Source: an uncultured candidate division Zixibacteria bacterium (lineage in GTDB: Bacteria; Zixibacteria; MSB-5A5; GN15; FEB-12). Taken from it: a stretch of DNA of 64,000 nt. The DNA is taken from positions 64,001-128,000 of the forward strand of contig CAWDXE010000005.1 of assembly GCA_963806185.1 (NCBI GenBank), read 5' to 3'. Under the pieces are notes generated by a model. It did not search any database and was not told the origin of the DNA. It worked only from the letters and a program-made list of their open reading frames with translations. Shown here one piece after another: positions 170-9,666 of this stretch (position 1 is its first letter; each line of letters begins with the position of its first letter). Position numbers and translations under genes: made by a program.

Positions 170-790
170 GTCAAGGGGCCCCAACGGCCCTCACCCTGAA
201 GGGAGAGGGGGAAGAGGGGCAGCACATCGTGTCGGGTTTCTCCGCCCCGCTGACGCGGGACTCCGGAACCCGACCTACCCTATTGTCATACCAGCGAAAG
301 CTGGTATCCAGAGGAGGTCGTACTATGGCAAGGCGTGATGTCCCCATGGATTCCGGACCGTTGGTCCGGAATGACAAGACTCACTGTCAGGCTCACAGGG
401 AGCCTGACCTACTGCACTCCCAGAGACAGAGGGGACAAGAGAAGAGCCTATCGAGAGCGCAGTGAACGAATGCAGATTCGAGGTTGCTTCGTCCCCTTCG
501 GCTCCGCTCAGGGTCCTCGCAATGAGTAATTGCGATGATTCAGGGCAGAGGTGCATTGATGGGCGCCCGCTCAAGGCGGGCGTGACTTTAGGGGGAAGGC
601 GAACATGACATTGGACGGAGACCATATCCGCTGAGGCTGGCGCACGAGACGTACGCCGGCCACCGAAGAAAGCGTCAGGTCACACGCCGCGAGGAAGCGG
701 TGCAGGACCTGACGCAACGTGCACTGAAGGGATCAGGGCCCCATGGATTCCGGACCGTTGGTCCGGAATGACAAGTGAAGGGAGTCTGTT
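170..790. repeat. Cluster of mixed REP-like palindromic repeats
   Basis: CCCCATGGATTCCGGACCGTTGGTCCGGAATGACAA at 342-377 and 739-774; GTCATACCAGCGAAAGCTGGTATCCA near 285-310; CTAC-ended hairpins near 231-278 and 385-412; units shared with 44780-45290. Confidence 0.85.
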
Positions 791-2228: not shown

Positions 2229-2349
2229 AGTGGCAAGGCTCAGTAAGGTGCTCGCGCACGGTATCGCAATATCGGACGCAACAAGCGAAGCATATTCAAT
2301 TCTTTCGCCTGGCGGCAAGGGAATTCTGCAGGGCGGGCCGTCAACGAGC

Positions 2350-3037
2350 TCAGGGGTGCGCGGAGCGATAGGCGGTCTTCTCGTCGAGAATCGCTTCGAG
2401 TTGAGCCAGCGGGAAGGCGGAGGCGAAGGGTTGGTCGTTCCAGTGTTCGCACCCAGTGAACGACAGCGGGACACCTCGGACCGGGATGCCCAGTTGCATG
2501 GCGGTGCGCATACCGTTGGCCAGCATGAGCAGACAGGCGACGCCGACGATGCCGAGCTGGTCGGTCGCGGCGGCGTAGTGTTCGATCTGTTGTTCCAGCT
2601 TGCGCTTGGAGAAGACCACGTCGGTGCCATATTTCGAAGCGAGCCCCATGACGAGCGCGGCCTGGCAGTCGGGAGTGCATTCGCGGCAGCGGTCGCCCCA
2701 GGCAGTCATCGTCCTTCGGGCAGTCAGGGTTGTGAAGTGAGAGACAGTCGGGGAGGATAATGAGCGTGGAACGGGTCTGATTGAAAGCTTGTCGATTGGC
2801 CTGATCGTACATTTTGTAGGCGACCGCTTCGAGCAGGTAAAATTCCCTTGGCGTGCGGCGGAGTTCGTGATCGTCGCGCTGACGGGTGTCGGCGAGGGCG
2901 GCGCAGACGAACCGATCGACGTGGTCGAAGGCACCGGAAAGACGGTGGAAACCGTCACGGGTGAACGATGCGACGAAATCGGTTAATTGCCGGTCAAAAT
3001 CGGGTCCCAGGAGGTAGGTGGGTGGTTCGTGCGACAT
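2350..3037 (-). pseudogene. DUF116-like Cys-rich protein with an apparent +1 frameshift near 2715 (probably an assembly error)
   Basis: The 5' frame carries LIILPDCLSLHNPDC; the 3' frame carries CRECTPDC, GIVGVACLLML and GVPLSFTGC. Removing one base joins them. Confidence 0.75.
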
Positions 3038-5242: not shown

Positions 5243-5734
5243 ATGTCTACGACAACGAAGCATTATCTCGTCAATCACATCGCCACGATCCACGGCGCGA
5301 CCAAGCGACTGCTGGACGATGTGAAAGAAGAAGAATCGATGATTGTATTGGGGAAGACGCACAATCACATCAAGTGGCTGGCGGGGCATCTGGCGTTTAC
5401 CTCGACGCTGGCCGGCAAGACACTGGGCGGGACGCTCAGCTTCCCTGAGCCGTGGATGGATTTGTTTCGCCGCGGCGCCGAAGTGGAGAAGGACCTTTCG
5501 GTCTTTCCGCCGATGGATGAAGTGCGCAAGAAGCTTTACGATCTGTACTACGAAGTCGAGCAGCTCGCGGCAGGCGCGGACGACGCGTACCTGAATATCG
5601 AGCGCGAGATCGCGCCGAACTGGAAAGACGCGCCGGTGCAGGCAGTCCTGTTCCTGTGCGCGCACGATTTCTATCACGCCGGGCAGATTGCGATGATTCG
5701 CCGCCACCTGGGGCGCGACCGGATGTTCGGGTAA
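5243..5734 (+). CDS. DinB/YfiT family protein
   Basis: NHIKWLAGHLA and HDFYHAGQIAMIRR metal-binding histidines; RBS AGGAG. Confidence 0.9.
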   Translation: MSTTTKHYLVNHIATIHGATKRLLDDVKEEESMIVLGKTHNHIKWLAGHLAFTSTLAGKTLGGTLSFPEPWMDLFRRGAEVEKDLSVFPPMDEVRKKLYDLYYEVEQLAAGADDAYLNIEREIAPNWKDAPVQAVLFLCAHDFYHAGQIAMIRRHLGRDRMFG

Positions 5735-5770
5735 GCTGAGCGCTCCCACTTAACACAATACTCTTCTATT

Positions 5771-6024
5771 CACGGCAGGCCCACCAAGCACACAATGGCA
5801 GACCCGCCGTGTCCCCAATTCCCCCCTCGTCATCCGGGCGAAGCGAACAAAATGGAACTGCTCGCCGCCTCAACTGTACGGTCCGTCTCGTGACGGATAG
5901 TCAATACACAACGATTTAGCTGAACCGACTGCGGATCGACAGGAAATGGCCGGTCGATACCGCAGGATAGAGCGGCGGCGAAGTTGTCAATGTGATGTGA
6001 GGAGGGTAGACTCGCGAAAGTCTA
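5771..6024 (-). ncRNA. Candidate ~250-nt structured non-coding RNA
   Basis: Minus-strand promoter TTGCAT-N16-TATATT (6057-6030); nested helices whose mismatches are G-U pairs only on the minus strand; no credible ORF. Confidence 0.5.
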
Positions 6025-6110
6025 AAAACAATATAGACGGGGAGTGAGATGATGCAAGTGATTTTTTTGCCTGCGGCGGGCGATAAGGGGCAAAAAAATC
6101 TGCAAAGGAT

Positions 6111-6137
6111 TGAAACCAACGCGCGGATGGTTCGTTT
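6111..6137 (+). promoter_or_regulatory. ECF-sigma-type promoter
   Basis: TGAAAC-N16-CGTTT, matching the AAC/CGT consensus of SigW-like ECF promoters. Confidence 0.6.
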
Positions 6138-6142
6138 AAATG

Positions 6143-6250
6143 ACAAGATCGGCTGAACGCATCGGCCGATTCTGAACTTCGATTCCTGAAAGTTCCCAAC
6201 CACCCATTTCATTCACGCCGGCCGGTCCGCAAGGACCGGTCGGCGTTTTT
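6143..6250 (+). ncRNA. Candidate ~108-nt sRNA
   Basis: Downstream of the ECF-type promoter; two hairpins, a C/U-rich linker, then an intrinsic terminator. Confidence 0.55.
6216..6250 (+). terminator. Intrinsic terminator
   Basis: 13-bp GC stem, GCAA loop, T5 tail. Confidence 0.85.
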
Positions 6251-6313
6251 GTGTGCGCGTGAGGCGGCGGAAATGAGGACCAGACGGAGCGGCGTCTGGT
6301 CGGCGAAGAATCA

Positions 6314-7237
6314 TCATCCTTCGGCGTCAGCTTTTCTGCGTTGCGGGCGGAGCTGGATGGACCTGATCAGCTGGACGATTTCCGCATTCCGGAACGGCCG
6401 GTGGATGAGACCGTAGCCGCCGGCGGCTTTCACGAGTTCATCGCTCACGCGAAAGAGGGGATCGCTTATGAACACGACGGGCACGCTGAAGCCCTGATCG
6501 CTGGACCAGGCGAGAAGATCCAGTCCGGTCATATCCGGCAGGACGAACTCGACGATAAGCAAGTTGGCTCTATTGGTAGTCAGCATCACTTTGGCTTCCG
6601 CGCCGGTGGCGGCGGTATGGACGACGTAGTTGGCGAGCGTCAGGTCGCGACCGAGGATGATACGGGAGGCCTCGCAGTCCGAAACGAGAGCGATGTGTAC
6701 GACGTAGGTTGCGAAGACAGCGTTGACGCGGCAGAGAAGAAGTTCGGAGGTGAATGGTTTGGCGAGATAGTCCGCGGCACCGGATTCGATGGCTTTCCTG
6801 ACATAGCGGGGATCGGAGCAACTGGTCAGGACGATGACCGGAATTCGCTGGAAGCGCAGATTGGCTTTCATAAACTCGAGAAGGGCAAAGCCGTTTTCGG
6901 TAGGCATCCGCAGATCGGTGATGACCAGCGCGGTATCGGTGTAGGTTTGGAGGAGCTCCCGGGCTTCCGCGACCGAGGAGGCAGTGATCACGCGAAAGCC
7001 TTCGGGCTCAAGAACGGAGGCGGCCAGTTCGAGGACGGAAGGTTCATCGTCGACGCAAATTATGGTCCGGGCGTCGGCGGCAATCCGGCGGGCTCTTTGG
7101 CGAGCGGCGCGGTCGCCGGTCGCCGGAGTGGCAGCGACTTTCGTTTGCTGGCAGAGTTGTTCGGCCAGTTGAAGTCGCATCGACTCTTTTCTCGACTGAG
7201 AGTCGTCGTTTTGAAATGGGTGCTTCTCCGGGGCCAT
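6314..7237 (-). CDS. Response regulator with a receiver and a degenerate second receiver, no output domain
   Basis: First REC has VDDE, ITDLRMP, LTS and AKPF; second has VSDC, IVEFVLPD and HRPF. Confidence 0.88.
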   Translation of the reverse strand: MAPEKHPFQNDDSQSRKESMRLQLAEQLCQQTKVAATPATGDRAARQRARRIAADARTIICVDDEPSVLELAASVLEPEGFRVITASSVAEARELLQTYTDTALVITDLRMPTENGFALLEFMKANLRFQRIPVIVLTSCSDPRYVRKAIESGAADYLAKPFTSELLLCRVNAVFATYVVHIALVSDCEASRIILGRDLTLANYVVHTAATGAEAKVMLTTNRANLLIVEFVLPDMTGLDLLAWSSDQGFSVPVVFISDPLFRVSDELVKAAGGYGLIHRPFRNAEIVQLIRSIQLRPQRRKADAEG

Positions 7238-7719: not shown

Positions 7720-9666
7720 TCAGACGTTGATCTTGAATCTCGATACCATCGTCTGCATACCTTCGGCCTGACGATTCAATTCTTCGGCGGCGGCAGCGGA
7801 TTGCTCGGCGCCCACCGATGTTTCTTTCGTCACCGACGCAATATGCTCGACATTCTTGCTGATCTGCTCGGCGGCACTCGACTGCTCTTCGGAGGCAGTG
7901 GCAATCTGCGCGATCATATCCATCACCCGCTGGCTCATGGAGACGATCTCATGCAGGCTGGAACCGGCTTTATCGGCCAGGTCGCGACCCTTGTCGACTT
8001 CCTGAATGCCTGATTCCATCGAGTGTACGGCATCAGCGGTTTCCGTCTGGATGCCCTTGATCATGCCGGTGATTTCCTTGGTCGCCTTACCGGTCCGTTC
8101 GGCCAGTTTGCGAACCTCGTCGGCCACAACGGCAAAGCCTCTCCCCTGCTCACCGGCGCGGGCCGCTTCAATAGCGGCGTTAAGGGCCAGCAAGTTGGTT
8201 TGATCGGCGATATCGTCGATGACGCCGATGATCTCACCAATCTGGTCGGCGGACTTGGCGAGTTTGCCGATGGAATCGGCGGATTGCCTGACGACCTGGG
8301 CGATCTTCTGCATACCCTGAATGGTGTCGGAGACAATCTGCCCACCGGAGGTGGCAGTACCGGAAGCACCCTTGGCAACGTCGGTAGCTTCACCGGCGTT
8401 CTTGGAGGCCTCGAGAATGGTGGCGGACATTTCTTCGATAGCGGTCGAGACCTGAGCGACCTGATCGGCCTGATCTTTTGCGCCCTTGGACATTTGCTCG
8501 GAGGACGAAGAGATTTCGGTTGCGGCCGAGACCAGTTCGCGAGCATTGTCGGTGAGCTGGCGGATGACGCCGCTCATATTGCCGATCATGCGGGTGAGAG
8601 CGTCGCCCATATGATGCTTGGCTTCCAGAGTAGCTTCGATTGACTTCACCAGCGTGCCGATTTCGTCGGCTGAGTTCAGGTTGAGTTTCTCGATCCTGGA
8701 TTGTTCGAGAACGACGGTGAAATCGTTATTGCCGAGGCGGTCGACGGCCTGGCCGAAGCGTTCGAATTCGTTGTTCATCTGGTTGGTCAGACCGACCACC
8801 CGGTTAATCGGATTGGCAATACCCCGAGAGATGAAGTAAGCGACAATAGCGCCGCAAAGAAGCGCCAGGAGCGTAAAAACCATGGCCAGATTCTTCGCCT
8901 GACTTTGTGCCGAGGCCATCTGGGTACCCGACTGGGCGGCGAGGTCTTCGCAGCGCTTCATTAGTGCTTCGGCCACCTGCGCCATTTCGGTCACGATCTT
9001 CACGCCGGATTTGGCTTCGGCGGAGTGCTGCTTGAGGGCATCAGCGTACTCGGCAACCAGGGGAAGCATGGAGGACTCACGTCCGAGATACTGACCCATG
9101 AGGCTGTTGAGTTTCGCGGTACAGCGGCCGGCCAGTTCGTCGTCCTTGGTGAGGAGATATCGTTTGGCGAGGATTTCCGCCTCACGGAAGTCGGCGAGCA
9201 GATTCTGGGCGCTGCCGCTACGACTGACGTCGGCCGACTGCGTCAGGCGTGCCGAAATGTCGTCCATCTTTTTCACCGCGGACCGCGCGGCCTCGGTGGA
9301 GGTGACGAATTGGTCAAAGATGGCGCTCCACTGGCGACCACCCGCGGCGATTTCGTCGCAGATCTTTAGATCTTCGTCGTTCAGCAACGTTCTTTTCGTT
9401 TCGTTGGCCTGTTCTGCAACCTGAGTCGCAAAGCCGTGGAGTTTCTCGATGTGTTTGCTATCACCCGTGAGGACGTAATCCCTGCGAGCGATGTACATAT
9501 TCTTGGCAGTAACTACCATCGAAGTAGCGTCGACACTGCTTTCCGCAGCCCGGTCTACTTTGGACAGACCATTGATACTGACTATGCCGACCGCCGCGGT
9601 AAGAGCCAGGACGGCTCCGAAACCGATATACATTTTCTTGGCGATCTTAACGTCTTTCCAAGCCAT
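7720..9666 (-). CDS. Methyl-accepting chemotaxis protein with a helical periplasmic sensor
   Basis: Two TM helices, HAMP region, [47 protein letters not shown] before MAWKDVK. Confidence 0.97.

Follow-up and report, generated by a model that had tools for sequence, protein, structure and literature searches.

Does a stretch of about 250 nt between two converging genes of an uncultured candidate division Zixibacteria bacterium encode an RNA, and if so, what might this RNA do? In a sequence-only reading, it had been described as an unrecognised, multi-domain structured RNA transcribed from the minus strand. We have analysed this element within the window (the whole stretch of DNA under study, 64,000 nucleotides long), in its genome and across related genomes, and as a minus-strand sequence feature it is real. 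The host lineage is uncultured and our literature searches, which covered Zixibacteria non-coding RNA, the distribution of 6S RNA and boxA, showed no described small RNAs for this lineage and no description of the element, a novelty on which supplementary RNA-prediction tables could still bear.

The locus and its genome

The element is single-copy and lies in a 579-nt gap of the host genome (G000; 3.65 Mb, 82% complete), the sole representative of its genus among the genomes compared. As had been read from the sequence, the flanking genes are convergent, ending at 5734 and 6314:

5243..5734, plus strand: DinB-family gene (Pfam), last in an operon with the type III pantothenate kinase gene (coaX)
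6314..7180, minus strand: two-receiver response regulator (Pfam), with three chemoreceptor (MCP) genes upstream

No open reading frame with a usable ribosome site is present in the element. Regarding the assembly itself, apparent frameshifts typical of uncorrected long reads are frequent: a DUF116 gene is in pieces (window positions 2240-3037), many ribosomal-protein genes are affected and conserved genes are found inside regions called intergenic. The intergenic regions of this genome, for example window positions 230-420, also contain many palindromic repeat families that start with GTCAT and are often in tandem. Elsewhere, intergenic stretches other than tRNA or rRNA are 64-82% conserved between the host genome and the genome G086 (C1:56021-56234, C6:26096-26238, C6:116257-116656, C5:211321-211549 and C3:194640-194770); all these are candidate leaders or small RNAs.

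A promoter and leader of ribosomal RNA type

Upstream and at the 5' end of the element, the following features stand in order on the minus strand:

6062..6068, minus strand: A7 tract, UP-element-like, directly upstream of the -35 hexamer, as at the rRNA promoter of the host genome
6030..6057, minus strand: housekeeping-type promoter TTGCAT-N16-TATATT, with a predicted start near 6023
6007..6024, minus strand: 5' hairpin P0, 7 bp, pair probability 0.67-0.94
5999..6006, minus strand: C-rich stretch CCCUCCUC, resembling an anti-Shine-Dalgarno (anti-SD) sequence, 5' arm of the long-range helix P1
5980..5992, minus strand: boxA-like motif CATTGACAACTTC, compared below with the boxA motifs of the host genome

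Both promoter hexamers (TTGCAT at 6057-6052 and, 16 nt further, TATATT at 6035-6030) and the 5' hairpin at 6024-6007 are where the sequence-only reading had placed them. The -10 hexamer and the 16-nt spacing are identical to those of the host tRNA-Gln and tRNA-Gly promoters, and the A-tract plus promoter pattern occurs at five intergenic loci of the genome, including the rRNA promoter and the element. A generic promoter scanner failed to call this promoter.

The succession of A-tract, promoter, 5' hairpin, linker and boxA-like motif (CATTGACAAC) is that of the rRNA leader, the 16S gene of the host being preceded by A-tract, promoter, hairpin, linker and ATCTTTGACAACT. Within CATTGACAACTTC, TTGACAACT is common to the boxA of the 16S leader and TTGACAACTTC to the boxA of the rRNA spacer, while its upstream bases are CACA, versus TTCT or ATCT in the boxA motifs of this genome; the latter also include TTCTTTGACAACTTC in the rRNA spacer and TTCTTTGACAAA in the tmRNA leader. 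Nine of ten bases match CTTTGACAAC, the form of all the rRNA and tmRNA leader boxA motifs that we saw in relatives; the motif is a putative boxA. The TTGACA that it contains can also be read as a -35 hexamer, 15 nt before TATCCT. As described in passages of one report (PMC13753749), boxA loads NusB-S10 and shields RNA that is not translated against Rho; in the rrn leaders of B. subtilis, a boxA-like motif comes after a small 5' hairpin. NusB is encoded in the host genome.

Among 1041 intergenic regions of this genome, three (tmRNA, rRNA leader and element) have C[AT]TTGACAA at 10-60 nt behind a promoter, while permuted motifs gave a mean of 0.3 regions and reached three in 3 of 300 trials, the pattern having been broadened to C[AT] only after the element had been seen. 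What is new here is the combination of an A-tract and a promoter with a 5' hairpin and a boxA-like motif, which, as an intergenic sequence pattern of the host genome, is present only at rRNA, tmRNA and the element. Across the phylum, the CATTGACAAC form behind a promoter is at chance level (8 matches versus 7 for the control in 284 genomes).

In the family genomes, 48 of the 51 promoter-plus-boxA matches were viewed and proved to be rRNA or tmRNA leaders or chance matches; one match in G086, first taken for an OLE-like RNA, was rejected, as it lies inside a 1990-codon open reading frame and has no Rfam match. A boxA motif stands directly behind the tmRNA promoter, as at rRNA genes, in three family genomes (L106:1500-1560, L291 and, in the host, C1 near 975036), which offers a simple way to seek stable RNA genes in this family. 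At another locus (L285; G069:C6:194435), a promoter, a hairpin and a perfect boxA precede a leader and an open reading frame, with neither rRNA nor tmRNA.

A strand-specific predicted fold

The minus strand of the element folds better than shuffled sequences (z -4.04 and -4.54), compared with z -2.48 and -2.3 for the plus strand. Against a background of 156 random 254-nt intergenic windows of the host genome, z values of -4 or below were reached by 3 of the 139 repeat-free windows (one over a tRNA) and by 7 of the 17 that bear repeats. Nine G-U pairs, distributed over P0, P1, P6 and P7, all work on the minus strand only. Besides P0, the firm helices are P3, P5 and P7, and the fold comprises:

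5820..5835, minus strand: 3' arm of P1 (GAUG, GAGGGGGG), whose plus-strand bases are those with which a family of palindromic repeats begins in the host genome
5982-5974 with 5861-5869, minus strand: alternative helix P2, predicted during transcription and minor at equilibrium
5929..5965, minus strand: hairpin P3, 14 bp, the sub-domain of highest stability (z -7.2; probability 0.75-0.98)
5882..5897, minus strand: hairpin P5, 6 bp (probability 0.97-0.99)
5842..5866, minus strand: hairpin P6, 9 bp with three G-U pairs, which excludes P2 (probability 0.78-0.87 at 37 C)
5771..5811, minus strand: 3' hairpin P7, 16 bp (probability 0.99-1.0), with no U-tract after it

The sequence-only reading had anticipated part of this architecture. 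Its 16-bp stem at 5811-5771 holds exactly the four G-U pairs it had counted and its sub-hairpin 5929-5965 is P3, while the other one, 5870-5923, is weak overall (z -1.1) with a core, 5897-5882, that alone is firm. A further stem, 5860-5854 with 5816-5822, receives a probability of at most 0.05 (0.0 for a 3' end at 5768). The proposed closing helix, P2, is complementary, yet its probability is only 0.03-0.08 because P6 (5866-5858 with 5842-5850) competes with it; for a 3' end at 5768, P2 has 0.03 and P6 0.87. The anti-SD stretch had been described as unpaired; with a 3' end at 5768, CCCUCCUC is predicted to be paired with 5821-5828 in P1 with a probability of 0.97 and unpaired with 0.01, so that it is not free at the predicted equilibrium. 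If the RNA ends at 5740, the stretch is predicted to pair elsewhere and to be unpaired with a probability of 0.31. For a transcript that extends up to about 5860, the predicted fold has P2 formed and the CCCUCCUC seed free, and the picture drawn earlier is that of this predicted nascent RNA. No intrinsic terminator was called on either strand between 5734 and 6215.

A divergent neighbour and the cis-acting readings

On the other side of the promoter, a second candidate diverges from the element:

6060-6071 and 6089-6100: inverted repeat, 12 bp, which supplies an A-tract to each divergent promoter
6111..6251, plus strand: second small RNA candidate, with a promoter-like motif TGAAAC-N16-CGTTTAA, two hairpins, a C-rich linker and a terminator

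Its intrinsic terminator lies at 6215-6246, the region 6140-6250 has a z of -6.2, and no homologue was found in 107 family genomes. As a motif like TGAAAC-N16-CGTTTAA also precedes groES, together with a CIRCE-type repeat, in the host genome and in G086, the promoter of this candidate may be an alternative-sigma heat-shock promoter.

This neighbour bears on two related proposals, namely that the element is an orphaned cis leader, an attenuator or riboswitch-like switch between P2 and P6 that has lost its downstream gene, or a type I toxin mRNA whose antitoxin would be the adjoining divergent RNA. P2 and P6 are indeed mutually exclusive, and the Shine-Dalgarno-like GAGGGGGG, masked by the 5' anti-SD, is followed by UUG and 22 codons. 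However, a riboswitch or cis leader was rejected since no Rfam aptamer was found and no same-strand gene lies downstream. The encoded peptides, of 22 or 27 residues, are not hydrophobic and overlap the 16-bp stem, and the two RNAs are complementary over 11 nt at most, as shuffled sequences are over 8-13 nt, so that a toxin-antitoxin pair is unlikely and was likewise set aside. Taken together, we regard these cis-acting proposals as highly unlikely.

Known RNA families and the missing 6S RNA

A search of Rfam, the check that had been suggested for this locus, returned nothing over 5771-6057 at E <= 10 (one chance match lies elsewhere in the window), and the element matches no known family. From the sequence, it could not be matched to tmRNA, RNase P, SRP, 6S or a riboswitch, and by family models and context it is none of these, as regards 6S in its Rfam form; tmRNA, RNase P RNA and SRP RNA each score above cut-off at other loci of the genome. 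A Csr/Rsm sponge RNA was rejected too: CsrA is encoded in the host genome, but the four minus-strand GGA sit in stems or linkers and not in hairpin loops.

The same four GGA count against a broader proposal, in which the hairpin loops of the element would bind some protein, though not RNA polymerase, and the element would be a stable scaffold or sponge RNA. Stable hairpins in a row, a leader of the stable-RNA type and the recurrence of CCAUU at the tip of each of P3, P6 and P7, or next to it, are consistent with such a role. Nevertheless, some 5-mer is expected three times by chance in 254 nt and no partner gene is linked in relatives, and we consider this reading unlikely.

The 6S RNAs call for a closer comparison. 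The 6S model RF00013 matched neither the host genome, nor any of 61 family or 146 phylum genomes, in a seed-limited Rfam model search whose control scored above cut-off in 4 of 14 known genomes; the 6S-Flavo (RF01685) and Ms1 (RF02566) models had no match in the host genome, and none of the three matched the element. Since Rfam 6S was not found in the phylum, its role may be unfilled or held by a divergent RNA, and the element, if transcribed, is a concrete candidate for the phylum's missing 6S-type RNA. The usual neighbours of 6S are zapA, ygfA or rny. In this genome, zapA-rny is on a different contig, ygfA was not found and the element is beside neither zapA nor rny; the zapA-rny gap measures about 100 nt at all 30 loci viewed. 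Before rny, most of 30 family genomes have a pyrimidine-rich stretch and a hairpin that ends in a Shine-Dalgarno sequence (L054-L083, zapA-rny gap), which may form a conserved leader for the gene of RNase Y.

According to the passages concerned of PMC11077062, 6S RNA is about 180 nt long and conserved in structure rather than in sequence, and RNAs of other classes that bind the polymerase are to be expected where searches have found no 6S and no Ms1. Ms1 is described, in part of PMC9130861, with a central bubble and added short 5' and 3' hairpins, and a passage of PMC4191392 presents this bubble as required for binding. In a fold that combines P1 and P2, the core of the element (6006-5821) has 186 nt, for a predicted transcript of about 255 nt, and the two helices would enclose a central bubble of 10 and 26 nt. 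The ensemble energy of this fold is 3.2 kcal/mol higher than that of the free fold, P2 being formed first during transcription, and in it alone does the Ms1-like combination of a bubble with short hairpins at the 5' and 3' ends appear; the dominant predicted fold is branched, and not an unbranched rod with a central bubble. A crude structure scan of the host genome and G086 gave no better 6S-shaped candidate, one such scan having folded 4447 of 6808 candidates with repeats dominating its output. It is conceivable that the element is an analogue of 6S or Ms1, i.e., a new kind of RNA-polymerase-binding decoy made from an rRNA-type antiterminated promoter. Against this speak the low probability of P2, a closing stem of 12 bp only, the side branch that interrupts the rod, the family models and the gene context, and a housekeeping RNA should have turned up in relatives. 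As such homologues are lacking, we rate this modelled role as unlikely.

Homologues and conservation

Searches by blastn revealed no homologue of the element in 284 other phylum genomes, where all 11 other matches were viewed (ten in coding DNA, one a palindromic repeat), and no true match in 61 relatives, where 5 of the 12 weak places were viewed (four coding, one sharing promoter bases only). A one-sequence covariance model found none in 107 family genomes, its six other matches all being in open reading frames, and none in five close genomes. In 2.37 of the 3.05 Mb of G086, full cmsearch and nhmmer gave best E values of 0.44 and 0.61, while plain blastn readily finds tmRNA (77%) and RNase P RNA (73%) in that genome. 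Exact patterns had three chance matches in metagenome contigs, none in viral contigs and ten in GTDB contigs, of which nine are inside open reading frames and none is homologous; phage and plasmid records contained no match to the element and a search for dinB in metagenomes found none. The pattern CTCCTC..CATTGACAAC had 23 other matches versus 5 for controls, and none of the seven viewed is homologous; one was discarded because its TTGACA is plainly a -35 hexamer. The genome-wide searches score few seed-picked candidates per genome, so that a very divergent homologue may be missed. Relatives of dinB and of the regulator gene have different neighbours, and in 6 of 29 relatives' loci the coaX-dinB pair is kept without the element. 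No second member was found for what had been proposed as a new class of non-coding RNA: the element is an orphan, a new class is not supported, and lacking homologues it offers no covariation.

Very close relatives are present in sediment runs. From an RNA library, a near-relative contig spans 5579-5848 and has six differences, all in dinB and five of them silent, i.e., at 6 of 156 dinB positions versus none of 114 in the element (Fisher p 0.04). A near-relative DNA contig from a sediment run covers 5952-6207 with a single difference, at 6061. Over 5849-5951, no contig was found in the small shares of sequencing runs searched, X10 having yielded nothing. With a depth of 2 and no strand, the RNA-library contig fits dinB read-through or DNA equally and does not demonstrate transcription of the element; it ends before the 5' 175 nt of the element, which speaks weakly against high abundance of the RNA.

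This contig, which spans the end of dinB and the 3' half of the element, together with the lack of a U-tract behind P7 and of a terminator on either strand, would also suit a cis-antisense unit, in which a strong antiterminated promoter reads into dinB and the pantothenate kinase gene in antisense and dampens the operon. This proposal leaves 200 nt of structure unexplained, the contig is strandless and relatives keep the coaX-dinB pair without the element; we find it quite unlikely.

Could the locus hold no functional RNA, but unrelated hairpins, the remnant of a palindromic repeat and chance look-alikes of a promoter and a boxA in a 3' intergenic region? The searches above, with tmRNA and RNase P RNA readily found in G086, lend weight to this explanation, as do the G086 look-alike within an open reading frame and the proportion of repeat-bearing intergenic windows that reach z values of -4 or below. 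Furthermore, CCCTCGTCATCC has 12 copies in the host genome, the other 11 of which precede TGAA in repeat hairpins, and positions 5820-5835 are identical to the start of this repeat family, so that a repeat may have given rise to the 3' arm of P1. On the other hand, every G-U pair favours the strand that bears the promoter, the element has no 16-mer that is repeated in the genome, promoter, hairpin and boxA-like motif stand in an ordered layout, and the changes in the near-relative RNA-library contig spare the 114 element positions that it covers. We consider the absence of a functional RNA rather unlikely.

A proposed lineage-restricted regulatory RNA

The promoter, the leader layout and the strand-specific fold support a stand-alone minus-strand non-coding RNA, and the element is probably an orphan RNA gene with an rRNA-type leader that is transcribed. 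If so, rRNA and tmRNA would be joined by a third non-coding transcript led by boxA; until a second member is known, the element is one orphan RNA among many, of value as a lead.

Regarding its function, our leading reading is a tentative one: a stand-alone RNA, restricted to its lineage and about 255 nt long, which may repress translation in trans through its C-rich seed. It would be transcribed from the rRNA-type promoter, NusB-S10 would load at boxA and guard the untranslated transcript against Rho, and the 16-bp hairpin P7 may mark a processed 3' end. The C-rich 5' seed would then pair with Shine-Dalgarno sequences and block ribosome binding. This seed is predicted to be free during RNA synthesis, or when P2 is formed, and to be hidden once P1 closes, so that the fold would gate pairing. 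A trans-acting translational repressor had already been proposed from the sequence; it stands as the leading mechanism, but the reason then given, a free anti-SD, fails at the predicted equilibrium, and the predicted pairing of the seed in the full-length RNA argues against it.

A candidate target is the mRNA of the chemoreceptor (MCP) encoded at 7720-9666. The full complement GAGGAGGG is present at the start of 3 of the 3181 called genes, including this MCP gene, 1.7 kb away, which ranks 16 of 3181 for seed pairing, 15 genes ranking higher; GGAGG is found at 228 of the 3181, making anti-SD pairing unspecific. Among the traits of trans base-pairing sRNAs, an intergenic promoter of its own is present at the motif level, while an intrinsic terminator and Hfq, which are typical though not universal, were found neither at the element nor in the host genome, respectively, the latter being 82% complete.

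Comparison with known systems

A parallel in layout is an unannotated intergenic sRNA candidate of another family (G047 L307:1352-1558, minus strand; about 205 nt, z -3.9, no Rfam match), which has a promoter TTGCGC-N17-TATATT, a 5' hairpin, CTCCTC and an identical 11-mer, ACATTGACAAC. Unlike the element, it ends in an intrinsic terminator, and past the 11-mer no significant alignment was found (as good a score was reached by 177 of 500 shuffles).

Base-pairing sRNAs with C-rich anti-SD seeds include RsaE and RNAIII of S. aureus. Like these, the element is intergenic, with its own promoter and a C-rich stretch complementary to Shine-Dalgarno sequences; unlike them, it has a seed predicted to be buried, an rRNA-type leader and no intrinsic terminator, and no Hfq was found. 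By its core, the element would fall in the size range of 6S (RF00013) and Ms1 (RF02566), and in the accessible P1-P2 fold it would have a closing stem, a central bubble and a long arm like these RNAs, together with 5' and 3' hairpins like Ms1, but it differs by the lack of a model match, a short closing stem, a side branch, a bubble fold that is not dominant and the lack of conservation in relatives.

Finally, in comparison with the rRNA-operon leader, the element has CACATTGACAAC and not TCTTTGACAAC, no rRNA or tmRNA lies downstream and there is no sequence likeness to the rrn leader of the host outside the motif. Its promoter, small 5' hairpin and boxA-like motif nonetheless follow the layout of such a leader with boxA, the site of NusB-S10 antitermination, as outlined for B. 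subtilis in passages of PMC13753749, and the same layout precedes the 16S and tmRNA genes of its own genome.
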